The position numbers and the translations under genes were made by a program. A model generated the notes under the pieces. The model ran no database searches, was not told the origin of the DNA, and saw nothing but the letters and a program-made list of their open reading frames with translations. From positions 99,434 to 163,433 of the IMG/VR virus record IMGVR_UViG_3300012007_000007: a DNA stretch of 64,000 nucleotides; one strand, given 5' to 3'. Source of the stretch: a virus (taxonomy: Duplodnaviria > Heunggongvirae > Uroviricota > Caudoviricetes). Shown here piece after piece: positions 8,896 through 58,266 of this stretch; the first letter of the stretch is position 1; each line of letters opens with the position of its first letter.

Positions 8896-9912
8896 ATGCC
8901 CAACGCAAACCTCAACAAGGCCAAGGCCGCCAAGAACGATGAATTTTATACCGTAATCGCGGACATTGAACGCGAAATGAACGCCTACTACGACCGCGAC
9001 CCGGATGTTTTCCGTGGCAAGACCATCCTCTGCCCGTGCGACGACCCGACTTGGAGCAACTTCACCAAGCACTTTACGCAGAACTTCGTCCGCTACGGCC
9101 TGAAGAAGCTCATCTGCACCGGCTACCACAAGGGCGGCAAGGGCATGAAGTATGTCCTTGAAGGCGACACGGACGGCAACGGCAAGGTCGAAGCAGCCGA
9201 CATCGTTGCTACCGAAATGGAAGGTGACGGCGATTTCCGTAGCGAGGAAGTCCAGGAACTGCTCGGAGAAGTGGACTTCATCATCACGAATCCCCCCTTC
9301 TCGCTCTTCCGCGAATTTATCGCTTGGATTATGGAACACGGGAAAAAGTTTGCAATTATCGGAACACAGAACGCCGTTTCTTGTTCCGAAGTGTTCAGTC
9401 TCATTAAGAGCAACCAAGTGTGGCTCGGTGCTACCGGGAACAACACCGACATGGTGTTCCGCGTTCCCGAAGGTGCCGAAATCAAGCCTTCCGACCGTGC
9501 CAAGGCAGAACGCCTGGGCTACAAGGGCAGCTATACCCGTCTCGGGAACAGCTGCTGGTTTACCAACATCGAACACGGCAAGCGTCATGAGTTCCTTGAC
9601 CTCTGCACCAAGGCACAGCTGAAGAAGCGCGGGGTGGAGTTCCCGAAGTATGACAACTACAGGGCCATCGAAGTGTCCAAGGGGGCATACATCCCCAAGG
9701 ACTACAAGGGGGTGATGGGCGTGCCCGTCACATGGCTGGACAAGTATAACCCGGAGCAGTTTGAAATTGTGGGCCTTGACGAAGCCCACGGCACCGGGAA
9801 CTCCAACGGGTTGTGGACGGGCGGCAACAAGAAGGCAACCATCAATGGAGAAGAAAAGTACGCCCGCCTCTTCATCAGGCACAAGCCCGCCACCGAAGAG
9901 GCCGACGCATAG
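8896..9912 (+). CDS. DNA N6-adenine (amino) methyltransferase, NPPF motif IV (338 aa)
   Basis: VDFIITNPPFSLFREF catalytic motif; paralog of CDS 12150..13115 (about 55-60% identity over the N-terminal 60 aa). Confidence 0.75.
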   Translation: MPNANLNKAKAAKNDEFYTVIADIEREMNAYYDRDPDVFRGKTILCPCDDPTWSNFTKHFTQNFVRYGLKKLICTGYHKGGKGMKYVLEGDTDGNGKVEAADIVATEMEGDGDFRSEEVQELLGEVDFIITNPPFSLFREFIAWIMEHGKKFAIIGTQNAVSCSEVFSLIKSNQVWLGATGNNTDMVFRVPEGAEIKPSDRAKAERLGYKGSYTRLGNSCWFTNIEHGKRHEFLDLCTKAQLKKRGVEFPKYDNYRAIEVSKGAYIPKDYKGVMGVPVTWLDKYNPEQFEIVGLDEAHGTGNSNGLWTGGNKKATINGEEKYARLFIRHKPATEEADA

Positions 9913-12149: not shown

Positions 12150-13115
12150 ATGCCCAACGCAAACCTCAACCGGGCGAAATCAGCCAAGAACGACGAATTC
12201 TACACGCTTCCAGCCGATGTTTCCCTGGAAGTATCGGCATACCTCCGCAGGAACCCCGACCTTTTCCGGGGAAAGTCCGTGCTCTGCCCCTGCGACGACC
12301 CGGACGACAGCGCGTTCGCGAGCCACTTCGCGGAACACCTGGGCGAATACGGGATAACCCGCCTGGTCTGCTCCTGCTACAACCGGGAATCCCACGGGAA
12401 GGTACGGGTCATAGAGAACGGTACTACCGTAGACTCCGAGCTCGAGGGCGACGGGGACTTCCGGGGGGAGGAGGTGGGACGGCTCATCGACGGCGCGGAC
12501 TTCGTGGTGACCAACCCCCCGTTCAGCCTGTTCAGGGACATCGTGGCCGTCCTGACGGCGAAAAATAAATTCTTTTCCCTGATAGGGAACCTCAACGCGA
12601 TAGGGTACAGCGAGATTTTCCCCCTTATAATGGAGAACCGCCTCTGGACGGGGGCCACCCACTTCAACACCGGGATGTACTTCCGCGTTCCCGGGGACTA
12701 CGAGTACGCACCCACCTACAAGTTCGACCGGGAGCGGGACGGCGTGAAGGTGATGCGCGTCCCGGCGACCTGCTGGTTCACCAACATAGACTTCGACTCA
12801 AGGCACGACACCCTGGAGCTCTCCTCCCGGGAAGCCCTGGAGAAGAAGGGGGTGTCGTTCCCGGTATATGACGACTACGACGCGATAGAGGTGTCGAAGG
12901 CGGTCAACATCCCGGGCGACTTCCCGGGGATAATGGGAGTTCCCATATCCTGGCTGGGCAAGTACAACCCGGAACAGTTCGAGATAGTGGGCATAGCCAA
13001 CCACGGCAAGGACAGCGAGTACGACCTGTTCGCCCCGAGCGTCCACGGGGAGACCGTGTACAAGCGGCTGCTCATCAGGCACCGGCATGCGCCCCAGGAT
13101 TCCCCCGTCCTCTAA
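12150..13115 (+). CDS. DNA N6-adenine methyltransferase paralog (321 aa)
   Basis: FVVTNPPFSLFRDI motif; N-terminus near-identical to CDS 8896. Confidence 0.75.
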   Translation: MPNANLNRAKSAKNDEFYTLPADVSLEVSAYLRRNPDLFRGKSVLCPCDDPDDSAFASHFAEHLGEYGITRLVCSCYNRESHGKVRVIENGTTVDSELEGDGDFRGEEVGRLIDGADFVVTNPPFSLFRDIVAVLTAKNKFFSLIGNLNAIGYSEIFPLIMENRLWTGATHFNTGMYFRVPGDYEYAPTYKFDRERDGVKVMRVPATCWFTNIDFDSRHDTLELSSREALEKKGVSFPVYDDYDAIEVSKAVNIPGDFPGIMGVPISWLGKYNPEQFEIVGIANHGKDSEYDLFAPSVHGETVYKRLLIRHRHAPQDSPVL

Positions 13116-21393: not shown

Positions 21394-21440
21394 CCTATCG
21401 GGACCCGGATGGGATGCCCGGGAAACCCCGGGAATTCCCA
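21394..21440 (+). promoter_or_regulatory. class-I element
   Basis: CCTATCGGGaccCGGATGGGATGCCCGGGAAACCCCGGGAATTCCCA. Confidence 0.55.
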
Positions 21441-21529
21441 CCAGGGAACCACACAGCCCGGCCCCGGGAACTCCCGGGAAACCGAACGGAAACTTTTTTT
21501 CTTACAAGAAACTTACAGGAGATACCACC

Positions 21530-21919
21530 ATGGCAAAGACAGCAAAGACAGCCAAGACAGCCAAGACAACCGCACCCAAGTACACCGCCAAGGAAACCAA
21601 CCTGGTCCTCGAAAAGATGTCGGACTTCGCCGGATACTTCAACAGGATGGCGAAGCTCCTCGCCACCGGGGTCGACGCGGTTATCGCATCCGCGACGAAA
21701 TGCCGCCTCCGCGTCAACACCGAGCACGTGTCCTTCAGGTCCTTCCCGGACAACGCCGTCAGGTTCTCCCTCACGGTCCACAAGGACTCCTCCGTACCCG
21801 TTCTGGTATATGCCCACCTCCCCGTCGGGAAGAAGGCGTTCTTTACCGGGAACGGGACCGAATACCCCATGACCTCCGCGGGTATCCGCCGCATGGCAAA
21901 GGACATCCTCGCCCTGTAG
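21530..21919 (+). CDS. hypothetical protein with basic AKTAK-repeat N-terminus (129 aa), possibly DNA-binding
   Basis: MAKTAKTAKTAKTTAPKYTAKE N-terminus; CAGGAGATACCACC RBS. Confidence 0.55.
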   Translation: MAKTAKTAKTAKTTAPKYTAKETNLVLEKMSDFAGYFNRMAKLLATGVDAVIASATKCRLRVNTEHVSFRSFPDNAVRFSLTVHKDSSVPVLVYAHLPVGKKAFFTGNGTEYPMTSAGIRRMAKDILAL

Positions 21920-22009: not shown

Positions 22010-22522
22010 ATGAACAAGCTGCTCATCTACATCGTGGCAACCGCCATCGTCATCCTCCTCGGCTTCGACGCGTACCTCGCGCTCACCGGGCAGGCAACCG
22101 CAACCTCCCTCGTCGAGCTCGCCGTAGGCGCCGGGGCAATCATCGCGTTCTCCGCGGCCGCCCTCGTGCGTACCGTCGGCGGGTTCCGAATCGGGACCGG
22201 CCGCACCAACCCCGTCGAATGCAAGCTCGACGAAATACTGGAAGAACTCTCGGCATGCCGCGACACCATCGGCGAAACAAACACCGCCGTCGAGAACGCA
22301 CGCGAGGACTTCGACTCCCGTCTCGGACTGAAGCCCGACGCATGGGAAGCGACAGTCAACACCGTCGACGAACACGGGAAGCTCGTCCCGGTATACGCCC
22401 TCGCCCCAGAGGATTCCCAGGAAGAGGCCGTCTGCGCCGCCCGTACCTCCCTCGAGGCGCGTGACGCGGAAGGCAACCCCGTCGAGAACGCCCGAATCAC
22501 GCTCCGTCCCGTATTCTACTGA
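22010..22522 (+). CDS. membrane protein (170 aa)
   Basis: two N-terminal TM helices; ATG after ACAGGAGACATTCCC. Confidence 0.55.
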   Translation: MNKLLIYIVATAIVILLGFDAYLALTGQATATSLVELAVGAGAIIAFSAAALVRTVGGFRIGTGRTNPVECKLDEILEELSACRDTIGETNTAVENAREDFDSRLGLKPDAWEATVNTVDEHGKLVPVYALAPEDSQEEAVCAARTSLEARDAEGNPVENARITLRPVFY

Positions 22523-22537
22523 TTTCCTCCATAACCC

Positions 22538-22580
22538 CCCATTGGGGAACCTCCCGGTACCTGCCGGGAGGTTTTTGTTT
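22538..22580 (+). terminator. intrinsic terminator
   Basis: AACCTCCCGGTACCTGCCGGGAGGTT + tttgtttttc. Confidence 0.55.
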
Positions 22581-22800
22581 TTCTCCCGGGAAACCTCCCC
22601 GGAACCTCCCGGGAATTCCCGGGATTTTTTTCTTGTTCCCCCCGGGAACCTCCCACGGAATTCCTGCTTTCCCCCCGGGAACATCTCACGTAATTCCTGC
22701 TTTCCCCCCGGGAATCTCCCACGGAATTCCCGGGGTTTCCACCGGGAAACTCCCGGAAACCTCCCCGGGGCTTCCCGGGAATCCCGCGAAAAAATATTTT
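22560..22800. repeat. GC-rich tandem repeat tract (~38-bp units TTCCCCCCGGGAAnnTCCCACGGAATTCCTGCT, ~3 copies plus CCCGGGAA-type simple repeats)
   Basis: visible direct repetition; no credible ORF. Confidence 0.6.
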
Positions 22801-22858
22801 ATTTTTAACCCCGTGAGCCCAGCTCGGGAACGGTACCGGAAGGAAATGCCCCGCCGTC

Positions 22859-22905
22859 CTCTATCGGGACCGGGATGGGATGTCCAGGATTTTCCAGGTT
22901 TCCGG
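22859..22905 (+). promoter_or_regulatory. class-I element (palindrome mutated, CCCGGG to TCCAGG on both arms)
   Basis: CTATCGGGaccGGGATGGGATGTCCAGGATTTTCCAGG; no gene downstream. Confidence 0.4.
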
Positions 22906-22988
22906 CCCGTTTTCGCCATTTCCACATACCGGTCAGAGCAGTGTCCCCCGGGAGGTCCAGATGCTGGGAAGAACTGACCCCCGCCGCC

Positions 22989-23040
22989 CTCTATCGGGAC
23001 CGGGATGGGATGCCCGGGAGGACCTCCCGGATTCCCCCGG
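22989..23040 (+). promoter_or_regulatory. class-I element followed by a repeat tract instead of a gene
   Basis: CTATCGGGaccGGGATGGGATGCCCGGGAGGACCTCCCGG. Confidence 0.5.
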
Positions 23041-23340
23041 GTTCTCCAGGATGTTCCCGGGTTGCTCCCGGAGGCTCCCAGGTTGCTCCCGGAGCATTCG
23101 GGTTGCCTCCCAGGTTCCCCCAGGTTGCTCCCGGATTCCCCCGGGTTGCTCCCGGAGGCTCCCGGATTCCCCGGGTTGCTCCCGGGTTGCTCCCGGGAGG
23201 TTCCCAGGTTGCCCCCGGGGCATTCGGGTTGCCCGACATCGGGCTCCCCAGGTTCCCCCGGGTTGCTCCCGGGAGGTTCCGGGGAGGTTCCGGGAGTTAT
23301 CCGGGGGGTTCCTGGGAGGTTTCACGGAGTCCCGGGATGT
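23030..23340. repeat. degenerate 12-bp tandem repeat tract (GGTTGCTCCCGG-like, >15 units)
   Basis: read directly; the Pro/Gly-rich ORFs here (22875..23538) are judged spurious. Confidence 0.6.
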
Positions 23341-23420
23341 TCCACGGGAGGTACGGGTGCCGTTTTTCGCGAAATTTCGGGGGTGCCTGCCGGGAAAAGT
23401 GGCGGAAAGTGGGGAATTTT

Positions 23421-23520
23421 CCCCGATTTTTATTACTTTCCGCTTACAGGATACTTACAGAATACTTATGGAAATATTATTGAAATATTAAATTTTACTT
23501 GGAAAATACTTGCAGAATCC
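23421..23520. repeat. AT-rich island with iteron-like direct repeats (ATACTTACAG / ATACTTATGG / ATACTTGCAG, plus GAAATATTA x2); candidate replication origin
   Basis: about 75% AT in a ~62% GC context; 4-5 direct ~10-bp repeats; FtsK-like and RadC genes immediately downstream. Confidence 0.4.
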
Positions 23521-23743
23521 GGGAAGTGCTGTTTTTGAGCGAAAAACGCCATTTTTGCCTCTCGTTGAACGAGGGTTTGACCTCCCGGGGAACCCTGTTT
23601 CTCCCGTGGAATCCGGGGCATCCCGGCGGGCCCGTCCGTTCCGGGGCCGCATCCCGCGGGTCGGGGGCTGGCGCCGGGGTACCAAGTTGGTTTCCGGTTC
23701 CCGTTTCCTTCCCCGTTCCCGGGGGAGGCGGGGCTGTCCGCCA

Positions 23744-23790
23744 CCTATCGGGTCGTGGATGGGATGCCCGGGAGGACCGGGGGATTCCCA
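23744..23790 (+). promoter_or_regulatory. class-I element
   Basis: CCTATCGGGtcgtGGATGGGATGCCCGGGAGGACCGGGGGATTCCCA. Confidence 0.55.
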
Positions 23791-23852
23791 TGTGCATGGC
23801 GGGAATGAAACATTTACGTGCGCGGGGCATGGCCTCGCGGGAGGATAGCCGC

Positions 23853-24488
23853 ATGATGGCGAGGGAATTTGCTTTGGGCGTACTGGTCCTGGCGGGGAGC
23901 GCCGTGTTCGGGGTGGAGCCGGGGCTTCCGGCGGGTTTCGACCTGAGCTGGAGGCCTATGGGAGCCAACACCGGGAAGCTGGTGGAGGACGTGGAGGCGG
24001 TATACGAGGACGGTGATGGCAAGGTGCGCTGCCAGTACATCAGGGGGGTGGACCTCCCGGCGGTCCGGGAGTACGGGGAGTGGGTGTGCCCGGCGGTGAC
24101 GCTGTGGCACATCCGGGAGGTGGACATAGAGCGTTTCGGGGGGAAGTGCGGCGGTCTGCTGTGCATGTACGACTACACGATGCCCGGGGACCTCCCGACC
24201 GCGACCACGGTGAAGCGGGTGGCGTGGTGCCCGGACGTGGTTGTGACCCGTCGGGAGGGGGGCTACCTGCGTATCCGTGGCGGGCTCCGATTCGGACGGG
24301 GTGACAGGCCCGAGCCGTACTACAACAGCGGGGTGATACCTATGAGTTTCCCCCTGGACCCGGAGCTTGCGGAGTGCGGCGGGGAGAACTACCGGGAGCA
24401 GCGGAGGTTCTGGCTGGAGGAGTTCAGCGCGCCGGGGTACGGCGTGAGGGAGGAGGCCGGGGAGACGGACAGCTGGGACGGGACCTAA
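23853..24488 (+). CDS. membrane-anchored protein (211 aa)
   Basis: ATGATG after GGGAGGATAGCCGC; N-terminal hydrophobic helix FALGVLVLAGSAVFG. Confidence 0.5.
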   Translation: MMAREFALGVLVLAGSAVFGVEPGLPAGFDLSWRPMGANTGKLVEDVEAVYEDGDGKVRCQYIRGVDLPAVREYGEWVCPAVTLWHIREVDIERFGGKCGGLLCMYDYTMPGDLPTATTVKRVAWCPDVVVTRREGGYLRIRGGLRFGRGDRPEPYYNSGVIPMSFPLDPELAECGGENYREQRRFWLEEFSAPGYGVREEAGETDSWDGT

Positions 24489-24530: not shown

Positions 24531-24568
24531 GGGGTATGGGCGTGAACAGTAACAAGATGGAGGACATC

Positions 24569-25720
24569 ATGGTCAAGGAGATGGAAAGGCGTTACTTCCG
24601 GGGACTCGGCGGAGACAGCGTGTCCGTCCCCTCCGGGAGCGACCGCGGGGAGCGGATAGAGGGCTTCTTCGCCGAGAACGGTGTCTCCCTCCGCGTGGAC
24701 GGGGTGGAGCGCGGCCCGGTGGTGACGAAGTACGTGGTGTCGCTGGGAAGCGACCGTGACCACGTGGCTAGGGTGGAGAACCTCCGCAGGGACCTGGGCA
24801 TCCGTCTCGGGGTCGGCGCGGGGAGGGTCTACATCGGCGAGACCCCGTGGAAGGGCGGCGTATCGCTGGCGATAGAGGTCCCGAACGCGGAGAGGGCGGG
24901 CGTGCCGGCGGGAGCCGTGATTCCGTCCGTGAGCGGGGACATTGCCAGGGACGGGCTGCGCGTGTGCCTGGGGGTGGACACCTCGGGCCGTCCGTATTCG
25001 GTGGACCTGTCCGTCGCCCCGCACGTGCTGGTCGCGGGCCAGAGCGGGAGCGGGAAGAGCGTGTTCCTGGACAGCCTGATATGCGGCCTCCTGGACAACT
25101 ACGGGCTTGGGGACTGCGAGGTGTCGGTGGTTGACCCGAAGGGCACGGAATTTATTTCGTTTTCCGGGCATCCCGGGGTTGTCCGGTACGGTCTGGGGAT
25201 TCCCGAGGAGGGCGCGGTGGTGAGGTCCGAGGAGGCCGCGGAGCACCTGGAGGCCCTGGTCCGCGTCATGCGTTCCCGCATGGCGGCGTTCGCGGGCGTG
25301 GGTGCGGGGAACATCCGGGAGTACCGGGAGGTGACGGGGTCGGCGATGCCGTACCACGTTGCGGTGGTGGACGAGTTCTACGACCTGCTGGTTAACTACC
25401 CGGAGGCGGAGGGCCCGATGGGCATCCTGGCGGCGAAGGCGAGGAGCGCGGGCATCCACCTGGTGCTCGCCACGCAGCGTCCGTCGGCGGACGTGGTGCG
25501 CGGTGCGCTGAAGGCGAACCTGTCCACTAGGATAGCGCTGAAGGTCGCGTCGAGGACGGACTCCCAGGTCATCCTGGACCGCGGCGGGGCGGAGACCCTG
25601 TGCGGCCGAGGGGACATGCTCTACATGGGCCCGGACGGGGATGCCCCGGTGCGCCTGCACGGGTGCTACGTGAGCAACGCGGACATCAGGGGCTTCGTCG
25701 CGAGCTGCGCGGGCCGGTAA
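24569..25720 (+). CDS. FtsK/SpoIIIE-family P-loop DNA translocase-like ATPase (383 aa)
   Basis: Walker A VAGQSGSGKSVF, Walker B VAVVDEFYDL, LVLATQRPSADVV motif. Confidence 0.7.
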   Translation: MVKEMERRYFRGLGGDSVSVPSGSDRGERIEGFFAENGVSLRVDGVERGPVVTKYVVSLGSDRDHVARVENLRRDLGIRLGVGAGRVYIGETPWKGGVSLAIEVPNAERAGVPAGAVIPSVSGDIARDGLRVCLGVDTSGRPYSVDLSVAPHVLVAGQSGSGKSVFLDSLICGLLDNYGLGDCEVSVVDPKGTEFISFSGHPGVVRYGLGIPEEGAVVRSEEAAEHLEALVRVMRSRMAAFAGVGAGNIREYREVTGSAMPYHVAVVDEFYDLLVNYPEAEGPMGILAAKARSAGIHLVLATQRPSADVVRGALKANLSTRIALKVASRTDSQVILDRGGAETLCGRGDMLYMGPDGDAPVRLHGCYVSNADIRGFVASCAGR

Positions 25721-25781: not shown

Positions 25782-26396
25782 ATGGACAAGGAAACCTTAG
25801 CACAAATCAGTACAATCGTCGGCTCCAAGCGCATCGCGGAGGGGGCAGTGGCCTACCTCAGCATGTGCCGGGAGATACCGGACGAGGGGAAGGTGTGCAG
25901 GGCCCTCCACGTGAGCCCCCTCACAGCGAGGAAGATATGCGCCGTCGCCGCTCTCTCGGGCAAGTTCCTGCTCGACACGGTCCCGGTGCACGTGAACAAC
26001 CCGGCCCTGGTGGCGGGCTACCTGAGCGACCTGAAGTTCGCCCCCACGGAGCACGTGGTCGTCCTCAGCGTCGCTTCCGACAACACGCTCATCAAGCGCC
26101 ACGAGTGCTCGTCCGGCGCGAGCAACCGGGCCACGGTCGACCCCTGCACGGTGTTCAGCGGCCCGGTCCAGGACAAGGCGCGCTCCATCATCGTGGCCCA
26201 CAACCACCCGAGCGGAAGCGTCGAGTTCAGCAACTCCGACTACGACTTCACGGAACAGCTCGTGAAGGCCGGCCGCCTGCTGAACATCAGGGTCCTCGAC
26301 AGCATCGTAATCAGCCACCGCGGAATCAAGTCGATGCGTGCCGAACGCCCCGAGATGTTCGCCGAGCCGAAGCCCTCCCAGGAACCCAAGGCGTAG
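25782..26396 (+). CDS. RadC-like JAB/MPN-domain protein (204 aa)
   Basis: IIVAHNHPSGSVEFSNSDYDFTEQL (JAMM motif HxH...S...D); AAAAGGAGAA RBS. Confidence 0.7.
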   Translation: MDKETLAQISTIVGSKRIAEGAVAYLSMCREIPDEGKVCRALHVSPLTARKICAVAALSGKFLLDTVPVHVNNPALVAGYLSDLKFAPTEHVVVLSVASDNTLIKRHECSSGASNRATVDPCTVFSGPVQDKARSIIVAHNHPSGSVEFSNSDYDFTEQLVKAGRLLNIRVLDSIVISHRGIKSMRAERPEMFAEPKPSQEPKA

Positions 26397-36602: not shown

Positions 36603-36652
36603 ACTTATCTCCTTGGCTAATTTACTCACCCAATAAATTATATTTTTCAATA

Positions 36653-36664
36653 CAAATATAGCAA
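36653..36664 (-). promoter_or_regulatory. class-III motif (minus strand TTGCTATATTTG)
   Basis: ~45 nt upstream of ATG 36602. Confidence 0.45.
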
Positions 36665-36718
36665 TTTATGGGGGCTGCTGGTTAAATGCTGTTTTAGCCA
36701 ATTTTGGACGTTTATATC

Positions 36719-38467: not shown

Positions 38468-38604
38468 GGTAAGTTCTCCTTTAATTGTATTGTTCTTGTC
38501 TCTTATACCCTAAATATACATTAATTTCGGCAAAAAGTCAATACTTTTATTGTAAAATTTAGTTTACTTACCATTTCCGCATCATATTTATGGGATTCAT
38601 AATT

Positions 38605-38619
38605 AAATATAGCAAAAAA
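38605..38619 (-). promoter_or_regulatory. class-III motif
   Basis: TTTTTTGCTATATTT immediately after the terminator hairpin. Confidence 0.45.
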
Positions 38620-43333: not shown

Positions 43334-43708
43334 CTATACAACCTTGATTCTTGTCACGAGGCCGCTGAAAGTGGCCCCGTCGTTCCTAGTATGGGTAAGC
43401 TCGACGGTTCCAGGGCTCAGCTGCACCTGCCGCGCCGATTGCTTGCCCTTCACCGTCTGGTCCCCGGTCTCGGCGAAGAATTGCTCCATGCTCCAGTTGA
43501 GGTCGTGCACCGCGTCCTTCTTGGAATGGTAGAAAGTTCGAGTGGTACTGGCAAGGGTCGACATGTCGTCGCTCCTGTATGTCGTCACGGTGAGCATGTA
43601 TATGTCGTTGTTCTTGCGCACGGCGGACAGGGAGGACTCAAGCTCGCGCACCTTCTTGCGGAGCTCATCCACTTCCTTGGTTTTCTTGTTAGTTACTGTT
43701 CTTGTCAT
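43334..43708 (-). CDS. hypothetical protein (124 aa)
   Basis: ORF track. Confidence 0.5.
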   Translation of the reverse strand: MTRTVTNKKTKEVDELRKKVRELESSLSAVRKNNDIYMLTVTTYRSDDMSTLASTTRTFYHSKKDAVHDLNWSMEQFFAETGDQTVKGKQSARQVQLSPGTVELTHTRNDGATFSGLVTRIKVV

Positions 43709-44670
43709 TATGCGGCAATCCTGGAGAATGCGAGGTCGAACGCGGGAGTGCTGGTCTTCTCGTAGCCACGGTCGACCATGTCCACGATATTGTTGAGGGC
43801 CATGCGGCTGCGACCGGCGATGTTGCCACAGAGAACGGAGCGTGGCTTGTTGGCAGTGTTCCGCGTGTCGTGCTGGTAGGTTCCCTGGATTGCGTTGTAC
43901 AGGTTCCAGGCAGTCATCTTCTCGGAATTGCCGTGGTCGGCGGACTCGAAGCGGTTGACCATTCCGGTGAGCAGGTTGACAAAGTGAGTACTCGGCTCCT
44001 GCGGGTCGTCATCGGAAGCCTTGTATGTCAGGCAACGGGCAATACCCTCGCGGACGAAGTCCATGTCGATTACATTGTCGGCAAGCCGGCTATAGATTTC
44101 GGAAGTCTTCTTGAACACGCCGTCGCAGATTCGCATCGTCTCGCCGAGGATGCGGAGGCGGCTTTCGGCCATGGAATCGTGGCGCACACGGAAAAGGCTG
44201 GCCTGGTCAGCATGGCTGAGCGCGGGTGCAATCTGGTTCTCGCACCAGAAACGGTACGGGGTGATGAGGATGGCGCAACCGCGTGTCCCGTCGTGGGAAT
44301 TGACCACCGAGATGTACCTACCCACGTGGTCGTCGCCACCGCCTACGACCATGTCGTCACCGATTGCAATCTGGGCGAACACGCCGGCACCGTTTCCCCA
44401 GCTGCCCACGTTGCGGAACTCGATATCGGCAACGTTGGCAATGTCGGCAATCACCTTGAAAGCGTCGCGGTTCTGTATTGGCCGGTAAGCCCTTGTGAAC
44501 GTATGCTCGGAAATGATTGTCCCGTCGTCGCTACGGACGGGGGCGAACATCTTGGTGCCGTGGAATTCCCCGTCGGCTCCCATGAAGGACACGGGTCTCA
44601 TCTCGGTGTCGAAGTCGAGGCGGTTGGCGCGGAGCGCGTCCATTACGGATTCATAGGCTGTATTGGGCAT
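43708..44670 (-). CDS. conserved phage/plasmid-type protein of unknown function (320 aa)
   Basis: long, well-formed ORF; AAAGGAACAATCACC upstream; no motif recognised with confidence. Confidence 0.55.
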   Translation of the reverse strand: MPNTAYESVMDALRANRLDFDTEMRPVSFMGADGEFHGTKMFAPVRSDDGTIISEHTFTRAYRPIQNRDAFKVIADIANVADIEFRNVGSWGNGAGVFAQIAIGDDMVVGGGDDHVGRYISVVNSHDGTRGCAILITPYRFWCENQIAPALSHADQASLFRVRHDSMAESRLRILGETMRICDGVFKKTSEIYSRLADNVIDMDFVREGIARCLTYKASDDDPQEPSTHFVNLLTGMVNRFESADHGNSEKMTAWNLYNAIQGTYQHDTRNTANKPRSVLCGNIAGRSRMALNNIVDMVDRGYEKTSTPAFDLAFSRIAA

Positions 44671-47622: not shown

Positions 47623-47907
47623 CTATTTCTTGTATATCCGTCGCATCACCAGCAGCCCCGTCGTCAGTATCGTCGCTACCGTGTAGTTGAAGTACAGCGG
47701 CCACTGCCATTCCCCGGTCACGCAGTTGGTGTACAGGACGAAAGCGCAGCTTCCGAGGTTACCTACGTAGGCCAGCGCGAAGAACCCGTACGATAGCCCG
47801 GTATCCTTCTTCTTCCACGCCTTGCGGACCTGAGGGGCCAGGTTGAATGCGAATGCCACCGCACCCGCACCTCCCAGAAGCCAGAACAGAATCCCTACCG
47901 CGTCCAT
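47623..47907 (-). CDS. PQ-loop / SemiSWEET-like small membrane protein (94 aa)
   Basis: 3 TM helices; PQVRKAWKKKDTGLS motif. Confidence 0.4.
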   Translation of the reverse strand: MDAVGILFWLLGGAGAVAFAFNLAPQVRKAWKKKDTGLSYGFFALAYVGNLGSCAFVLYTNCVTGEWQWPLYFNYTVATILTTGLLVMRRIYKK

Positions 47908-49154
47908 CAGCCCGCCTTGATTTCCCCCACGAGTTTATCGAACCACTCCCGCGTCATCTGCCGCCTGTCCTTGCGATGGCGGTACACGGCCAGCCGGAGC
48001 TTTCTGAGCGTATGTCCAAACTCCTTGCCCTGCTTCACGCCGGCATCGAGCAACGCCCTCGTCATGTCCTTCATTGTGGGCCACTCGGTCGCGTGCTCCC
48101 GCAGCTTTATCTCGTCCGTCCGAGAAATTACCAGGTAGCCCTGTCTCGAGAACACGTAGGCCCTGAACAGTTCCCATCGGTCGTCGGTAACCAGGTCGAC
48201 AAGGTCTACAAGGTCGAGCGTACCGGCGAGGTACTTCTTGAATCTTTCGGTAATATACTCGACGTTCCTCGCGTCCTCCCTGGTGCACTTCAGGGCCTGC
48301 ATCGAGTACTTGTCCGGGAGTATCAGCGGGAACAGGTATTCGGGCTTCCACTGCACGTCACTACCCAATGTCGCGCACGCCGTAGCCAATCTTGCAATGC
48401 ACTGTCTGGCAAAGTCCCAGTCGATATTCAGGCCAGTTCCCTTCCCGATGTCCCATGACGCCATCCAGCCGAGCATCGCGGCGACCTGCTGCACTCCGTA
48501 CTCGGCACACTTGGCAAGCTCGTCGTGAATCCTTTCCTTCGATATGTTGGCCAGCCTCGGCGCAAGCACCCTCGCGGCATTCAGCGTGGCAACATCTATC
48601 TTCATGCCGAAACGAGCGGCGAACCGGCACATCCTCACTATCCTTAGCGCGTCCTCGGTGAACCGCTCGGTAGCATCGCCGACGGTCCGCAGGTGGTTCT
48701 TCGTAATTGATTCAACGCCGCCGTGGTAGTCGACCACACGGTAATCGCCGTCCAGTCCCATTGCATTGGCGGTGAAGTCCCTTCTCGCCGAATCCTCCTC
48801 AAAGCTCCCGGCCCACTCTACGCTATCCGGGTGCCGTCCGTCGGTATAGTCCCCGTCCTTCCTGAACTGGGTCACCTCGAACATCGTGTCCTTCCACTCG
48901 ACCAGCACGGTACCGTGCGCCTCGCCGTTGTTGCTCTCGCACCTGAACGCCTTCTTCAGCTCCTCGATTGGCATGTTGGTCGCTATGTCCACGTCGTGTA
49001 TGCCGGGATGCTTCTCCAGCCCCAGCTCCCAGCGGACAAGGTCCCTCACGCAGCCCCCGGCAAGGAGTGCGTCATATCCGTGTTTACCAATCTCCCTGAC
49101 TAAACCGAGCCCCTTCTCGACGAGGGGGATGGTCCTTGCGTTCAATATAATCAT
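47907..49154 (-). CDS. tRNA nucleotidyltransferase (CCA-adding enzyme / poly(A) polymerase head + HD domain) (415 aa)
   Basis: GGCVRDLV ... HDVDIAT nucleotidyltransferase motif; C-terminal HD-like LRIVRMCRFAARFG. Confidence 0.7.
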   Translation of the reverse strand: MIILNARTIPLVEKGLGLVREIGKHGYDALLAGGCVRDLVRWELGLEKHPGIHDVDIATNMPIEELKKAFRCESNNGEAHGTVLVEWKDTMFEVTQFRKDGDYTDGRHPDSVEWAGSFEEDSARRDFTANAMGLDGDYRVVDYHGGVESITKNHLRTVGDATERFTEDALRIVRMCRFAARFGMKIDVATLNAARVLAPRLANISKERIHDELAKCAEYGVQQVAAMLGWMASWDIGKGTGLNIDWDFARQCIARLATACATLGSDVQWKPEYLFPLILPDKYSMQALKCTREDARNVEYITERFKKYLAGTLDLVDLVDLVTDDRWELFRAYVFSRQGYLVISRTDEIKLREHATEWPTMKDMTRALLDAGVKQGKEFGHTLRKLRLAVYRHRKDRRQMTREWFDKLVGEIKAG

Positions 49155-53080: not shown

Positions 53081-54184
53081 CTAGAGGCTCTTCAAGGGAG
53101 TCAAAATTCCGTCCTGGACCCAGTCGTTCAGGTAATTGGCATCGATGACATTGTACGGGAGGCTCCCGGATACGGAATTGACTGCCGGCTTTCCCCAGTC
53201 AGGGAAGTATTTCACGATGTTGTATACGGCGATATCGGAATCGAGCGACATGCTCTCCAGCTTCCAGGAAATCACCTCGGTGGCATCGGGAATTGCGTTG
53301 TCCGATACCAGACAGTATCCAATCTTGTTTCCCGGTAGGTGCCAGGCGAGTAGCTTGCCGGCCTGCGGAGTGCGGGCCTCTTCGACCAGTCCGTTGTCCT
53401 CCACGAGTATGCCGCCCTCCAGCATGTCCTCTATCATGGAGTTGGGGAACAGCTGCGCACTGAGCCTGCTCCTGTTCAAGGTCAGTCTGCGCTTGAAGTT
53501 GGCGTCGTTGCACTTGCAGCACTTCGGCTCTATGCCGAACCACCGGGAGAACCCGTAAAGCGCCCACTGGAGGTTGTCCTTGTGTACACGGGATACCGCG
53601 GTAACTCCCGGCTTGGCGTTCGGTGCAAGCAGCAGGACGGAACCGTCGTTGTCGATACGGTTCTTCATGCCGTTGTTCAGTGTCAGCGGAGTGTCGTTAA
53701 CGACGGTAATCTTGTAGTTGGAACTCGAGTTGATGCGGTCGCACCACCTGGTGAACCTCGGGCCGTGTGTCTCCTCGTTGTCCTCCCGCTCGGGGGAGTA
53801 GGCGAGGTAGGCGTGAATCATCTCGTGGATGAGCACCTCGTCGAGTGTCTTCGGAGTATAGTCGAAGGCGTTGGACAGCTTGATGCCGCAATCCACCAGT
53901 GATGACTGGTTGAATGGCCCACGCCTCCAGGTGGTGGCACAGTATCCGAGCTTCTTGGTGGAATTGCAGAATCCTATCGGCATTGTCCTGGGAAGATACC
54001 CCTGGTCGCCCCCGAAGAATTGATTGCGGAACTCGGTATACTTCCGGTCCAGGTAGTCCTTGCCGTACTCGGCGGGTGTCTTGGCAATTTCGGGTTCAGC
54101 CATTTCGAGCAGGGTAAATTCCCTGCATTCCATGTAGCCCTTCCTGAGGGCCTCCATCAGCGATGTGTCGATTGTATTGGCCAT
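53081..54184 (-). CDS. SprT-like zinc metalloprotease domain protein (367 aa)
   Basis: LIHEMIHAY (HExxH) followed by ETHGPRF, typical SprT spacing. Confidence 0.6.
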   Translation of the reverse strand: MANTIDTSLMEALRKGYMECREFTLLEMAEPEIAKTPAEYGKDYLDRKYTEFRNQFFGGDQGYLPRTMPIGFCNSTKKLGYCATTWRRGPFNQSSLVDCGIKLSNAFDYTPKTLDEVLIHEMIHAYLAYSPEREDNEETHGPRFTRWCDRINSSSNYKITVVNDTPLTLNNGMKNRIDNDGSVLLLAPNAKPGVTAVSRVHKDNLQWALYGFSRWFGIEPKCCKCNDANFKRRLTLNRSRLSAQLFPNSMIEDMLEGGILVEDNGLVEEARTPQAGKLLAWHLPGNKIGYCLVSDNAIPDATEVISWKLESMSLDSDIAVYNIVKYFPDWGKPAVNSVSGSLPYNVIDANYLNDWVQDGILTPLKSL

Positions 54185-54852: not shown

Positions 54853-54946
54853 TTGTTACTCCGATGTATTGAAGTTGATAGATTTCATTTTTCAGCAGCA
54901 CGTTGGGTTAACATACCCAAACAATATCTATTCCGGATGCGTGTAG

Positions 54947-55029
54947 CGGAAGGCGAGGGACTCGAACCCCCAAGCGTTTTACCGCGGCGGATTTCAAGTC
55001 CGCTGACTTACCAGTTAGCCTAGCCTTCC
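54947..55029 (-). tRNA. tRNA-Ser (anticodon UGA), long variable arm
   Basis: hand-folded cloverleaf; acceptor GGAAGGC/GCCTTCC; anticodon loop CTTGAAA; T-loop GGTTCGAGTCC. Confidence 0.65.
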
Positions 55030-55036
55030 TGTTTCC

Positions 55037-55225
55037 CTAGTAGTGGGCGTGCGAAGAGAGAAGTTCAGCCTTCTCCCTCTCCATGCGCTCCCTCTGCCGG
55101 GCAAGCTTCTTGATGTCTATTCCGCAGGACTTGGCCATGCTCCTGGCCTTCTTCTGCTGCTTGGCCCAGCGGGCCTGCTTCTGCTCCTCGGTTTCCTCCG
55201 GGAGCTCTTCCCTGTGCTTCTTCAT
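55037..55225 (-). CDS. small Lys/Glu-rich protein (62 aa)
   Basis: ORF track. Confidence 0.4.
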   Translation of the reverse strand: MKKHREELPEETEEQKQARWAKQQKKARSMAKSCGIDIKKLARQRERMEREKAELLSSHAHY

Positions 55226-55233
55226 ATGTCCCC

Positions 55234-55701
55234 CTAGTCGTTCACCCCGACGACCACAATCTCGTCTTCGGTAAAATACTCGTTAAGTTTGTCCCTGTTG
55301 GCCTGCATAGTGTTCCACATGCGCTCGACCACGTCAATAGGAACCTTGCGCTCCCTGCCTTCCATTCTCCGCATGGCGACCTCGGGCGGAATGTCGAACC
55401 AGTAGGCCCTGGACATTGAGCCGGCCGGGCAAAGGCCCAGGTAGGTCCTCCAGTCCCTCACGTGGATATTGGTGGCGTCGCACACCACGTCGCCGCGCAG
55501 CATGCCCTCCGATACCCTAGAACGGAATATGGCGAATACCTTGGAATCCAGCTCCGGGTAGAGGTATTCCTCCGTACCGGTCAGTTCCTTCCGGATTCCA
55601 TCGGACGACACTACGGTAGCCCCGGTAGATTCCGCGAGCTTCCTCCCGTACGTAGACTTGCCGCACCCGGGAATGCCTATGAGAAGATGCAGAGTATTCA
55701 T
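55234..55701 (-). CDS. polynucleotide 5'-kinase (T4 Pnk kinase-domain-like P-loop kinase) (155 aa)
   Basis: GIPGCGKST Walker A; RKVPIDVVERMWNTM closely resembles T4 Pnk KAVPIDVLRSMYKSM. Confidence 0.65.
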   Translation of the reverse strand: MNTLHLLIGIPGCGKSTYGRKLAESTGATVVSSDGIRKELTGTEEYLYPELDSKVFAIFRSRVSEGMLRGDVVCDATNIHVRDWRTYLGLCPAGSMSRAYWFDIPPEVAMRRMEGRERKVPIDVVERMWNTMQANRDKLNEYFTEDEIVVVGVND

Positions 55702-55719
55702 CTGATTGTTCCTTTTTAG

Positions 55720-55792
55720 TAGTCCTACCCGGATTCGAACCGGAGTTACCGGAATGAGAATCCGGCGTCCTGGGCCTCTAGACGATAGGACC
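55720..55792 (-). tRNA. tRNA-Glu (anticodon CUC)
   Basis: hand-folded; strong similarity to bacterial tRNA-Glu backbone; loop TTCTCAT. Confidence 0.6.
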
Positions 55793-55807
55793 GTGTGTTA
55801 AATTTAG

Positions 55808-55881
55808 CTCCGGTGGACAGACTCGAACTGCCGAATCTCCTGATTACAAATCAGGCGCTCTACCAACTGAGCTACACCGGA
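55808..55881 (-). tRNA. tRNA-Thr (anticodon UGU)
   Basis: hand-folded; loop TTTGTAA; T-loop TTCGAGT. Confidence 0.6.
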
Positions 55882-55887
55882 ATGGAA

Positions 55888-55961
55888 TCGGGGTAGCCGG
55901 ATTCGAACCGACGACATCCTGCTCCCAAAGCAGACGCTCTACCAGGCTGAGCTACACCCCG
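55888..55961 (-). tRNA. tRNA-Pro (anticodon UGG)
   Basis: hand-folded; loop TTTGGGA. Confidence 0.6.
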
Positions 55962-55967
55962 GGAACC

Positions 55968-56228
55968 CTAGTCTTCTTCGACTGGTTCCGTCAGCTTGGT
56001 AGCGATTACCTTCGCGTAGTCGGCCACCGTGCGGATACGTTCGAGCTCGGAATCGAGAATCTCAATCTCGAACTCGTCTTCCATCGCCATCACGATTTCC
56101 ACGATGTCGAGAGAGTCCGCGCCGAGGTCGGCAGCGATTTCGGAATCGTCGTCGATGTCGGAAACGTCAAGTTCCAGCTTGGCGGAAATTACGTTCTTCA
56201 CGCGTCCGAGAAGTTCATTGCTTGTCAT
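55968..56228 (-). CDS. acyl carrier protein (86 aa)
   Basis: GADSLDIVEIVMAMEDEF phosphopantetheine-attachment motif; AGGAGA RBS. Confidence 0.65.
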   Translation of the reverse strand: MTSNELLGRVKNVISAKLELDVSDIDDDSEIAADLGADSLDIVEIVMAMEDEFEIEILDSELERIRTVADYAKVIATKLTEPVEED

Positions 56229-56244
56229 ATACTCTCCTTGTAAA

Positions 56245-56541
56245 TCACTTGACTTCTTCGACTTTCTGCGGTCCGGCCAGGCGGTGCATGTCCGCATACA
56301 GTCTTTCCCGGTATAGTCCGAGGTCCTTCAATGTCTTTTCCAGTTCGTCGAACCTGCATTCGACGACACGGTCTCCGGATTCGATGCGGGCCTTCTCCTT
56401 ATCCATGTCGTACCGTATCCATGTTACGGCCAGGTCCTTCGGGTTGACGTACTTGGTCGTCGTAACGTCGTACGAGTGCATGTTTTGGAGGTAACCTTCG
56501 ATGAACCGGAATTTCCAAAGAGCAAAGTTTGTCAAGTCCAT
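56245..56541 (-). CDS. hypothetical protein (98 aa)
   Basis: ORF track. Confidence 0.5.
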   Translation of the reverse strand: MDLTNFALWKFRFIEGYLQNMHSYDVTTTKYVNPKDLAVTWIRYDMDKEKARIESGDRVVECRFDELEKTLKDLGLYRERLYADMHRLAGPQKVEEVK

Positions 56542-56562
56542 TGTTCATTATCCCCAAATTGC

Positions 56563-56651
56563 CAGTTTATGTAGAAGAGGGAGCAGGATTCGAACCTGCG
56601 AGGGCCCGTGAGGGCCCCACCGGCTTAGCAAGCCGGCGCCTTTAGCCTCTC
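56563..56651 (-). tRNA. tRNA-Ser (anticodon GCU), long variable arm
   Basis: hand-folded; loop TTGCTAA; 89 nt. Confidence 0.6.
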
Positions 56652-56670
56652 GGCCACCCCTCCGATGAAA

Positions 56671-57450
56671 TTAGTTCAGCGACAGGTCGGGAACTACCCT
56701 TTCCACGGAGCGGCTGTCGTTGAACTCGCTGCCACGATAGCGGTGAGTGTCGTACTTCGGGTCCTGCCCTATGATGCCGTAAGTCATGGAATCGGCCATG
56801 CCGGATGTCTTGCACACGCTGAACAGCGCGTCGCTCATGAACGGGTACCGCTTCAGCTCGTTGAGGAGACCGTCGAGTATGAAGTCGGCGAACCTGGTGT
56901 AAGCGCCGCTGTAGCACAGCAGACCCTTGTTCAGCCCGACCAGGAACAGCTTCATCTCGGAATGGTGGGCGAGGTACTCGTAAACTCCCTCCGTAATCTG
57001 CGGATAGGTCGGGGAATACATGTCGTCGAGCACCACTACACCGTCCGGCTGCAGTACCTTCGACGCGATGTCGAGGTCGCACTTCACCCCTTCCAGGGAA
57101 TGGGCCCCGTCGATGTGGATGAACTGCATGCACTTTCCGTATTCGCGGGTGAACGGGGTGTAGCATGAAAGGTTGAGGTATCCCTTCACGTGCTCCCCGT
57201 CCAGCGTGGTATGCGAAAGCACGTTCTCCCTGGTGGTCTGGTAGTGTCCGGCGTCGCATTCGACGTAGTGGAACGTGTCGGAAGTGCTGCTCGCTATGAT
57301 GACGGCCGTCTTCCCGTCCCACGTCCCTATCTCCATCGTGTTCGCCGGCTCGATGAAGCGTAGAAAACAGTCCATCAGGACCATGGCCTCGTAGTTGTTG
57401 AAGCCCTCTATGTCCGCGACAGTGTACATGTTGAATATATCGTTCTTCAT
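56671..57450 (-). CDS. class I SAM-dependent methyltransferase (TylF/MycF-like fold) (259 aa)
   Basis: EIGTWDGKTAVIIA (motif I-like), IHIDGAHSLEG, DGVVVLDDM. Confidence 0.5.
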   Translation of the reverse strand: MKNDIFNMYTVADIEGFNNYEAMVLMDCFLRFIEPANTMEIGTWDGKTAVIIASSTSDTFHYVECDAGHYQTTRENVLSHTTLDGEHVKGYLNLSCYTPFTREYGKCMQFIHIDGAHSLEGVKCDLDIASKVLQPDGVVVLDDMYSPTYPQITEGVYEYLAHHSEMKLFLVGLNKGLLCYSGAYTRFADFILDGLLNELKRYPFMSDALFSVCKTSGMADSMTYGIIGQDPKYDTHRYRGSEFNDSRSVERVVPDLSLN

Positions 57451-57484
57451 CGGGAATCTCCGGGAGATTGGTTGTTTTTGCTAG

Positions 57485-57557
57485 TATCCCCACCAAGACT
57501 CGAACTTGAATCGGCGGTTTAGGAAACCGTGGCTCTATCCTGTTGAGCTATGGGGAC
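57485..57557 (-). tRNA. tRNA-Arg (anticodon CCU)
   Basis: hand-folded; loop TTCCTAA. Confidence 0.55.
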
Positions 57558-57582
57558 TCATACTCGTACTTACGGAAGTGGA

Positions 57583-57666
57583 GGGACTCGAACCCCCAAG
57601 CCGGTAAAGGCTCGCGGTTTTCGAAACCGCTCCGCCACCACTTGCGGGACACTTCCTGTATAGGGT
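57583..57666 (-). tRNA. tRNA-Ser (anticodon CGA), long variable arm
   Basis: hand-folded; perfect acceptor GGAAGTG/CACTTCC; loop TTCGAAA. Confidence 0.6.
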
Positions 57667-57673
57667 GGAAGAC

Positions 57674-58260: not shown

Positions 58261-58266
58261 GTAAAC

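Follow-up and report, generated by a model that had tools for sequence, protein, structure and literature searches.

Here we describe a non-coding locus of 1.27 kb, at positions 22523-23790 of a 64-kb window (the whole stretch of DNA analysed, positions 99,434 to 163,433 of the virus record IMGVR_UViG_3300012007_000007), which we tentatively interpret as the origin of vegetative replication in a giant phage-like element. Initiation there would probably be bidirectional and probably transcription-activated. The locus consists of tandem hairpins, arrays of short phased GC-rich units, orphan copies of a gene-start motif and an AT-rich island set between two inverted boxes. This anatomy, its conservation, the pattern of constraint within it and a switch of strand composition with the polarity of an origin are seen directly in the DNA. 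A first-pass annotation had proposed a candidate origin here, and among the readings weighed below that idea is the best supported, owing to the recurrence of the locus in five lineages, the inverted boxes, the constraint and the skew flip, although several of its details did not hold.

The window was compared with metagenome contigs of 200-470 kb from an uncharacterised family, found through homologues of the FtsK-like protein encoded downstream of the locus (49-67% identity). The five lineages with the locus are the window and L073, L003, L008 and L141, whose FtsK orthologues are 56-67% identical; L073 is a close relative of the window (~92% identical) and is arranged like it. In each of the four further contigs the locus follows a gene of the same two-transmembrane (TM) type, here called up1: at 4552-5945 in L073, at 2046-3037 in L003 (~7 kb upstream of FtsK), at 1398-2188 in L008 (3.3 kb upstream) and at 149-1046 in L141 (~9 kb upstream). 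No such locus lies within 10 kb in L004, L007, L009 or L142. The order of parts is constant, namely a terminator, phased (C)TCC(C)GG units, an orphan gene-start motif, more units, an AT patch and a core of ~70 bp.

An AT-rich island bracketed by inverted boxes

The AT-rich island (23400-23525, 125 bp) is a candidate DNA-unwinding element. Positions 23451-23510 are 82% AT and form the most AT-rich 60 bp of the 64 kb, and the best 100 bp of the island reach 74%, so that an initial estimate of ~80% is right over 60 bp. The direct repeats noted there at first reading are also present, as seven units of ~11 bp of the CTTACAGAATA type (23443-23519) with a clear 11-bp periodicity (z 6.9 by autocorrelation). 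Units of the ATACTTACAG type are confined to the window/L073 lineage; in L003, L008 and L141 the position of the AT patch is kept and its sequence is not conserved. Other stretches among the most AT-rich 100 bp of the window are 38512-38611 (78%) and 36618-36717 (71%), both intergenic in the minus-strand gene block and the second near the point where plus- and minus-strand genes converge. No locus-like repeats or boxes were seen by eye at the 38.5-kb stretch.

Two arms of ~80 bp are inverted about the island, each starting with the 13-bp box GCGAAAAACGSCA. Just two perfect copies of this box occur in the 64 kb, box L (GCGAAAAACGGCA, 23358-23370, minus strand) and box R (GCGAAAAACGCCA, 23539-23551, plus strand). 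The left arm (23266-23357, minus strand) holds ~8 units in opposite orientation, which read CCGGGAGGTTCC and are G-rich on the plus strand, as well as a CTCCCGTGGAAC box on the minus strand, and it takes part in a 23-nt perfect inverted match. The first-pass annotation had missed that these last ~8 units of the GC-rich array are reversed. The right arm and core (23526-23640, plus strand) comprise box R, CTCTCGTTGAAC (23559-23570), GGGTTTGACC (23573-23582) and CTCCCGG units that face outwards. When 23260-23650 is folded as single-stranded DNA it forms a long hairpin with a z-score of -5.0.

The conserved core of ~70 bp (23526-23600) has the consensus TGGCGTTTTTGAGCGAAAAACGCCA-n-TGTCGTTGAACACGGGTTTGACC, and an nhmmer profile built on it matched all five lineages, with E-values of 5e-32 for the window, 2e-32 for L073, 3e-27 for L003, 2e-25 for L008 and 1e-10 for L141. 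The same profile also matched the minus strand to the left of the AT patch, at 23378-23288 in the window and likewise in L073, L003 and L008. Furthermore, an alignment of eight arms from four lineages showed that the GCGAAAAACGSCA box and a CTCYCGTKGAAC box are common to the arms and that the AAAA-CG-CA positions are invariant. Because of the minus-strand core match and these common boxes, we read the island as lying between two inverted sites that resemble recognition sequences, with CTCCCGG units pointing away from it to left and right.

Constraint on the island and core

In aligned columns, the island and the core are each 95% identical between the window and L073, with no indels, as compared with 91-93% for the flanking genes. 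Identity in the arrays falls to 62-71%, with indels of whole units (10, 12, 21 and 22 nt): the left array shows 62% identity with 43 gap columns, and the middle array 71% identity with indels of 22, 12 and 10 nt. Despite these indels the second orphan gene-start motif (class-I copy b, described below) stands almost equally far from box L in the two sequences (window, 368 bp; L073, 369 bp). Thus, selection holds the island, the boxes and the overall length, while the units themselves turn over. We conclude that purifying constraint acts on the island and core and not on the arrays.

A switch of strand composition that follows the locus

The origins of huge phages have been inferred from GC skew (PMC7162821). 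Skew was measured here at four-fold degenerate sites, and all genes on either side of the locus lie on the plus strand; the bin 21414-21872 is to be disregarded, as its reading frame is probably wrong. In the window, GC skew changes from -0.49 in up1 to +0.47 in the first downstream gene and +0.27 in the FtsK gene. Similar changes occur from -0.69 upstream to +0.35 downstream in L073, from -0.50 to +0.19 and +0.43 in L008, and from -0.66 to +0.39 and +0.52 in L003, and the first downstream gene of L141 has a skew of +0.34. The balance of A and T at four-fold sites flips as well, with A in excess on the left and T on the right. Across the locus the jump of +1.01 is the largest between adjacent plus-strand genes of the window, the next being 0.65. 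To the left, GC3 skew becomes ever more negative towards the locus over ~15-20 kb (Spearman rho -0.72, p = 2e-5, 27 genes). This polarity, with C and A in excess on the left and G and T on the right of the plus strand, is that expected around a bidirectional origin, or downstream of a plus strand that is often single-stranded. The skew check proposed in the first-pass annotation therefore returned a flip of origin polarity at the locus, one that is local and not replichore-wide.

Orthologous genes at different distances from the locus show what the flip follows. The FtsK gene lies 1 kb from the locus in the window and L073, where its skew is +0.27 and +0.23; the value is +0.09 in L008 at 3.3 kb, -0.29 in L003 and -0.24 in L141 at 7-9 kb, and -0.18 to -0.39 in L004, L007 and L009, which have no locus within 10 kb. 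Similarly, the first downstream (membrane) gene has a skew of +0.47 at the locus, and its orthologues at least 6 kb away or at unknown distance range from -0.06 to +0.10. Both genes thus change skew according to how far they stand from the locus, and it is the locus, not the genes, that the flip follows.

These data also bear on the idea that the arrays are largely functionless, that is, debris of promoters and terminators expanded by slippage, with a skew flip that merely reflects mosaic gene acquisition. The arrays are the least conserved part of the locus, as such debris would be, the genes directly to its right differ between lineages, and the positive skew stops abruptly at the boundary between the FtsK and RadC genes. 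We consider this explanation highly improbable, as it does not account for an architecture found in five lineages with its lengths kept to within a base pair, for an island and core at least as conserved as coding sequence, for the conserved inverted boxes, or for orthologous membrane and FtsK genes whose skew shifts with distance from the locus.

Arrays phased with the DNA helix

Open reading frames (ORFs) across the locus are artefacts of GC-rich repeats. The repeat period is not a multiple of 3, the L073 indels measure 22, 12, 10 and 21 nt and the sole Shine-Dalgarno (SD) sequence with an ATG is not conserved, and therefore the locus is non-coding, in agreement with the first-pass annotation. 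A coding reading of the ORFs 22875-23483, 22880-23491 and 23005-23538 was rejected on the same two counts, a period of 10-11 bp and indels that are not all multiples of 3. The feature was initially thought to end at 23530; it runs on to ~23790 and includes the core and a third copy of the gene-start motif.

The left array (22546-22780, plus strand) contains ~20 units of 10-11 bp of the nnAACCTCCCGG type, with autocorrelation peaks at lags of 11, 22, 33 and 44 (z up to 10). Inside it, three copies of a 33-bp unit, itself three 11-bp sub-units, occupy 22636-22734, and TRF reported 22636-22730 with a period of 33, 2.9 copies and 88% matches. This is the tract that had been assigned a 38-bp unit; the tract is real and the unit is 33 bp. 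It is followed by a small AT patch (22783-22810, 71% AT, GCGAAAAAATATTTTATTTTTAAC), which is also present in L073 and has an analogue between the arrays of L141. The middle array (23020-23265, plus strand) contains ~23-26 units of 10-11 bp of the GGTTGCTCCCGG type, of which seven are exact, and is C-rich on the plus strand. Its TRF periods are 10, 21, 31, 63 and 84, and its autocorrelation peaks fall at lags of 10, 11, 21, 32 and 42 (z 8-9 at lags 10/11), so that the ~25 copies counted at first were correct in number and not in their supposed period of 12 bp.

Phased units fill the ~340 bp between class-I copy b and the island, and the ~90 nt directly before the island are G-rich on the RNA-like (plus) strand. 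Clusters of G occur on the plus strand just upstream of the AT patch in the window, L003 and L008, and in all lineages the later phased units are G-rich on the plus strand near their end. Over the ~800 bp from 22546 to 23350, autocorrelation peaks appear at 10, 11, 21, 32-33 and 42-44 (z up to 12), whereas the flanking coding DNA yields just the multiples of 3 typical of genes. In total there are ~55 units, which abut without spacers, and the sequence CTCCCGGG occurs 85 times against 5.5 expected. The mean period of ~10.5 bp is that of the DNA helix and not of codons. The same phasing was seen in L003 and L008. To the right of the core lies a variable GC-rich spacer (23641-23732), at which L073 has a 139-bp insertion with an extra class-I copy. 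A GTCGGCTTCAAGGG box occurs in the loci of L003 (2295-2353, with a 30-bp tandem duplicate), L141 (~320-345) and L008 (1467-1492, minus strand), and is absent from that of the window.

Three other candidate identities for the repeats were rejected. A CRISPR array at the locus would need spacers, and the true CRISPR array of the window sits elsewhere; a telomere-resolution site is not supported, as direct repeats, not a palindrome, make up the centre; and no integrase is present to go with an attP site.

Phased arrays of this kind might also serve as a partition centromere of the parC/ParR or tubC type, coated by an adaptor to segregate the giant genome. About 55 units on one helix face, with a mean period of 10.5 bp and in blocks on either side of promoter-like elements, would suit such a site. 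Among the neighbouring genes in the five lineages, Pfam searches found no ParA, ParM or TubZ-type NTPase and no RHH adaptor. Moreover, repeat number and sequence turn over quickly and it is the AT island and inverted boxes that are constrained, and a centromere does not predict a skew flip. A centromere is thus, in our view, very unlikely.

Tandem terminator-like hairpins and orphan gene-start motifs

At its left end the locus has two tandem hairpins with T-runs that resemble intrinsic terminators (22545-22634, plus strand). The first (22545-22576) has 14 pairs and is followed by GTTTTTCTCC, and the second (22607-22624) reads TCCCGGGAATTCCCGGGA and is followed by TTTTTTTCTT. The arrangement also occurs in L073, where the hairpin and T-run units are duplicated differently. 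The hairpins probably insulate the locus against early transcription from upstream.

The gene-start motif of the window, which we call class-I, has a full element of ~48 nt (CTAWCGGGnnnnGGATGGGATGCCCGGGAnnCCCGGGrnnTTCCCA). It is present in 34 copies, all on the plus strand between 83 and 24506, and 34 occurrences of its core compare with 0.08 expected. Nearly all copies stand 45-75 nt 5' of an SD sequence and start codon, often directly after a terminator-like hairpin. From its position before 34 genes, which is the sole basis for assigning it promoter activity, the motif looks like the promoter, or possibly a 5' untranslated region (5'-UTR) element, of a large early regulon. The CCCGGG modules within it recur as the building unit of the arrays and of the stems of the terminators.

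Two copies within the locus are orphans. Copy a (22849-22889, plus strand) has TCCAGG...TCCAGG in place of CCCGGG...CCCGGG, as the first-pass annotation had recognised in describing one copy with both palindrome arms mutated; it is 88% identical in L073 and has no conserved ORF downstream, since the SD and ATG at 22961 are lost in L073. Copy b (22979-23019, plus strand) is a perfect match to the 25-nt consensus, is 95% identical in L073 and reads straight into the middle array. Copy c (23733-23790, motif 23733-23773, plus strand) precedes the downstream gene. In L003, L008 and L141, orphan copies of each lineage's own gene-start motif are found at the matching position. These motifs are lineage-specific, for example CCACCTGGT...GACGGGGGGAG in L141 and CCACCGTG...GGAGGGGGGAC...CCCGGGAG in L003.

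Such features could instead belong to a transcription-control hub with no role in replication, in which terminators and orphan promoters are combined with an operator-like CCCGGG array that titrates or nucleates the class-I regulator or yields a structured non-coding RNA. In its favour, the array module (CCCGGGA / CTCCCGG) occurs two or three times in each class-I motif and also in the local terminator stems, and orphan gene-start motifs aimed into the array are kept in five lineages. In four of the five lineages the core contains TTGACC and, 17 bp further on, TCTCCC, a pair that could form an unusual promoter, and a sigma-like gene is conserved a few genes downstream. In contrast, transcription alone leaves a skew sign flip of ~1.0 between co-oriented flanking genes unexplained, as it does the mirrored 13-bp boxes around a constrained AT island. 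An Rfam scan of the locus gave nothing above gathering threshold. Taken together, we regard a purely transcriptional role as rather unlikely. The sub-threshold Rfam matches to small RNAs and microRNAs were repeat artefacts, and a sigma-70 promoter scan returned two weak sites in the island, at chance level.

Genes on either side of the locus

Directly upstream is up1 (22010-22522, plus strand; 170 aa from MNK), whose product has two TM helices near its N-terminus and, at the C-terminus, a conserved beta-beta-alpha-beta domain. Of the neighbours, this gene alone is syntenic in all five lineages (homologues P0121-P0127), and homologous C-termini stand directly upstream of the locus in L073, L003 and L141. 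The protein had no Pfam or PHROG match, and its predicted structure (mean pLDDT 70, ~90 for the C-terminal domain) had a best PDB match of E = 0.26. The contigs that carry the homologues P0121-P0127 are all short (1.1-3.9 kb) and the 294-kb contig of L008 stops 1.4 kb before the locus, on its left side; breaks in assembly may be commoner around these repeats.

Downstream, the first gene (~23790-24488, plus strand) encodes a product with one N-terminal hydrophobic segment and in relatives always adjoins the FtsK-like gene. The latter (24542-25720, plus strand) specifies an FtsK/SpoIIIE-like ATPase of 392 aa, identical to P0001 (PF01580, 1e-27; PF17854), that has neither a TM domain nor a gamma domain; PF09397 is absent from the family members of 380-430 aa and present in cellular FtsK matches. 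RadC follows (25782-26396, plus strand; PF04002, 3.5e-29). The string of genes conserved in relatives consists of a ~215-aa protein, the FtsK-like ATPase, RadC and a ~257-aa sigma-like protein, and the other neighbouring genes received no Pfam or PHROG assignment. The membrane protein, FtsK-like ATPase and RadC were correctly placed downstream of the locus by the first-pass annotation, but this holds for the window and is not a conserved linkage: FtsK stands 1 kb from the locus in the window and at 3-9 kb in three relatives, and in a further four it is beyond 10 kb or at unknown distance. In L003 (10001, 11205), L141 (10001, 11299) and L008 (5482, 6686), AT-rich sequences of the TTTTAATTTTTGA type lie upstream of the FtsK-like and RadC genes, and the window's FtsK gene is preceded instead by a class-I motif. 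The two genes therefore seem to be under different expression signals in different lineages.

The neighbourhood raises the question of whether the locus is a site of DNA entry, packaging or transfer, such as a T5-like injection stop, a pac site or terminus, an oriT-like site with its leading region on the left, or a clt-like site for an FtsK pump. The 22 kb on the left is occupied by at least 32 small co-oriented genes, each with the same gene-start motif and all pointing at the locus, and in the window a membrane-anchored protein and the FtsK-like motor are encoded 0.3-2 kb downstream. Genes typical of the entry phase or of anti-restriction are nearby (EcoRI-like and other methyltransferases, RadC, DUF932 and SprT-like), the excess of C over G and of A over T that builds up in a long ramp on the left side alone would fit prolonged single-strandedness of a strand transferred first, and the short up1-homologue contigs and the end of the L008 contig 1.4 kb from the locus would also fit such a site. 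Conversely, the window scans recognised no relaxase, type IV secretion system (T4SS), terminase or T5 A1/A2-like gene, there are no DnaA boxes of the kind found in the T5 injection-stop site, and the FtsK-like protein lacks a gamma or winged helix-turn-helix (wHTH) reader and is encoded anywhere from 1 kb to more than 10 kb away. The contigs of L003 (326 kb) and L141 (235 kb) continue straight through the locus, and entry or packaging of double-stranded DNA does not predict a two-sided flip with G and T in excess on the right. An entry, packaging or transfer site is accordingly judged unlikely.

The element and its distribution

Genes of the window run on the plus strand from position 1 to ~36 kb and on the minus strand from 36 to 64 kb. 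The minus-strand block includes an array of 13 tRNA genes (54946-60208), whose anticodons include an unusual tRNA-Asn (ATT), and a gene for a CCA-adding enzyme (tRNA nucleotidyltransferase, 47907-49154). A CRISPR array of 13 repeats of 36 nt (GGTGTAGTCACCCCTCAAAATGGGGGTGGGTCCACC) with spacers of ~30 nt lies beside an ORF of 767 aa whose C-terminus matches the Cas12f1-like TNB domain (PF07282, 1.5e-8); array and ORF (60729-61571 and 61576-63879, minus strand) are a candidate compact type V CRISPR-Cas system borne by the element. The tRNA array, the CCA-adding enzyme, a sigma-like gene, homing endonucleases and the CRISPR array beside a TNB-domain protein are indirect marks that suggest a huge phage. 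Pfam and PHROG searches of ~55 window ORFs recognised no capsid, terminase, portal, relaxase, T4SS, Rep or Par protein.

The window has no GATC site where ~240 are predicted from base composition by a rough estimate, and strong avoidance of a GATC-targeting restriction system is therefore suggested. A cluster of genes of an anti-restriction or entry-phase type is found at 12150-13115, 8896-9912, 56671-57450, 43708-44670 and 53081-54184, and comprises those for an EcoRI-like adenine methyltransferase (PF13651, 3e-93), other methyltransferases, DUF932 and an SprT-like protein. A Tad2-like gene is present in L142.

As searched here, the family is absent from collections of annotated phages and plasmids, from IMG/VR and from the GTDB representative genomes. 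Megablast and tblastn searches of annotated phages and plasmids found no match to the region, a 681-aa ORF or the core, apart from generic FtsK similarity, and a scan of IMG/VR with the FtsK-like protein found no match. An IMG/VR match to the class-I pattern, L001, was an unrelated high-GC contig. A gapped core pattern proved too loose, giving 11 viral and at least 120 metagenome matches of which L073 alone was real, and a tighter pattern produced chance matches alone in GTDB representative genomes and IMG/VR. We also found no described equivalent of the locus in the literature on rumen or huge phages.

A proposed mode of initiation

If the locus is an origin, its parts suggest an order of events. 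The tandem terminators (22545-22634) would halt read-through from the co-oriented early block upstream, and one or both orphan gene-start motifs (22849-22889 and 22979-23019) would then start non-coding transcription across the ~340 bp of phased units. The AT island, which lies 380-500 bp downstream of copy b, would act through its seven 11-bp units as the unwinding element. An initiator or helicase loader would bind the mirrored ~80-bp arms symmetrically at the GCGAAAAACGSCA and CTCYCGTKGAAC boxes. The phased CTCCCGG arrays would bind, or be wrapped around, a factor of architectural or regulatory type along a single helix face, and the CCCGGG modules in the 34 gene-start motifs may be read by the same factor. 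The G-rich RNA-like strand before the island and the excess of G and T downstream would fit a start of the R-loop or D-loop type.

A more elaborate version holds that a single factor recognises the CCCGGG modules that precede each early gene and polymerises on the ~55-unit array, thereby coupling early transcription to the firing of an R-loop- or D-loop-primed origin. We think this quite unlikely. Under it, lasting single-strandedness may have left the footprint of several kb at synonymous sites. As a variant of similar standing, the array may be the stop or loading site of the neighbouring membrane-anchored FtsK-like motor that pumps the remaining several hundred kb in a second step.

A number of observations weigh against an origin and keep our assignment tentative. 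The skew is local, with a positive domain of ~2 kb in the window and 1-5 kb in relatives and a negative ramp of ~15 kb; this counts against an origin because a simple replichore model predicts a persistent signal, and no lasting replichore-wide skew was found elsewhere in the 64-kb window. Within the FtsK gene the skew does not decay smoothly, and the drop comes at the FtsK/RadC boundary. No gene for an initiator, helicase loader, primase or polymerase was recognised within 10 kb in any lineage by Pfam and PHROG searches of the window's flanking ORFs and by precomputed Pfam matches in L003, L008 and L141, although unannotated proteins near the locus could still act as initiator. No DnaA box (TTATCCACA, at most one mismatch) occurs in 22400-23900. 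The repeats of the AT island and the spacing between box L and box R differ between lineages, the latter being 181 bp in both the window and L073, 98 bp in L003 and ~20 bp at its shortest. The number and size of the phased units are unlike those of known iterons. The class-I motif may act at the RNA level as a 5'-UTR element, its promoter role resting on position, and the window leaves the type of the element, phage or plasmid, unproven.

Nevertheless, the locus offers a compact, family-wide origin candidate with exact coordinates, the sub-elements of which (boxes, island, arrays and orphan motifs) are open to synthesis. We know of no experimentally defined replication origin for any uncultivated huge phage, and to our knowledge origins in these phages have merely been guessed from genome-wide GC skew. 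Moreover, a skew jump of ~1.0 that moves with the locus is an unusually clean natural experiment in how a cis element shapes local mutation or selection. Should the origin reading prove wrong, the anatomy would point to a genome of several hundred kb that enters the cell or is packaged in steps.

Comparison with known systems

Some known systems resemble the locus in ways that bear on its rival explanations. The injection-stop region of T5 lies at the end of the pre-early block and is more conserved than adjacent genes (bioRxiv 10.1101/866236). Our locus looks similar, as a conserved untranslated repeat region beside a co-oriented early block, although a true parallel would require that this block enters first. 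In contrast, the T5 region is in a long terminal repeat and has eight paired DnaA boxes, whereas here there are none and no terminus signal, and the compositional flip seen here is not predicted for an injection stop. In Streptomyces, the FtsK-like translocase TraB recognises the 8-bp clt repeats (GACCCGGA). The short GC-rich repeats of our locus, which contain CCCGG and stand near the gene for an FtsK-like ATPase, recall this arrangement, but the ATPase here has neither a TM domain nor a C-terminal wHTH or gamma reader, its linkage to the locus is loose (1 to >10 kb), and an element with tRNA genes and a CRISPR array is more like a huge phage. The parC site of plasmid R1 has two blocks of five 11-bp repeats that flank a promoter. 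Phased repeat blocks of ~11 bp around promoter-like elements are shared with it, whereas the AT island, the inverted boxes and the skew flip are not, and no gene for a partition NTPase or adaptor adjoins the locus.

Closer parallels exist among replication origins. In T7 the primary origin is made up of two tandem promoters, phi1.1A and phi1.1B, and a promoter is required at all T7 origins (PMC8373140). An AT-rich region follows the two T7 promoters, and one or two promoter-like elements are similarly aimed at an AT-rich stretch in our locus. Differences from T7 are the ~340 bp of phased repeats that precede the island, the mirrored boxes that flank it and the putative status of promoter activity and RNA priming here; in addition, no phage RNA polymerase was identified in the window. 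Transcription- or R-loop-primed origins are also known from T4 (oriF and oriG) and ColE1, and as in these and T7 the RNA-like strand just upstream of the AT stretch is G-rich.

Iteron origins, such as lambda ori, RK2, R6K, P1 and pPS10, place helically phased direct repeats beside an AT-rich unwinding region, and the first-pass annotation had seen a classic organisation of this kind. Phased direct repeats and an adjacent AT-rich element are present here, and the AT-rich part of that claim stands. Known iterons occur in 4-7 copies of 17-22 bp, whereas the units here are of 10-11 bp, number ~55 and turn over quickly, the AT-island repeats are specific to one lineage, and the conserved elements are two single inverted boxes. 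Furthermore, no gene for a Rep- or O-type initiator was recognised at or beside the locus and there are no DnaA boxes. The iteron part of the claim is thus not upheld in detail.

Mirrored boxes that bracket an AT-rich segment are found in herpes simplex virus (HSV) oriS, as boxes I and II, and in archaeal oriC, as inverted origin recognition boxes (ORBs), an arrangement that suits head-to-head loading of helicases. The GCGAAAAACGSCA boxes on either side of the island resemble this layout; they differ in showing no homology of sequence or protein and in their variable spacing. If the locus is indeed an origin, it would be of a known kind, with repeats, an AT-rich unwinding element and transcriptional activation, and an unusual variant of that kind. 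What sets it apart are ~55 phased units of 10-11 bp that share their module with the gene-start motif and the terminators, mirrored single boxes, and a strong compositional footprint that moves with the locus.

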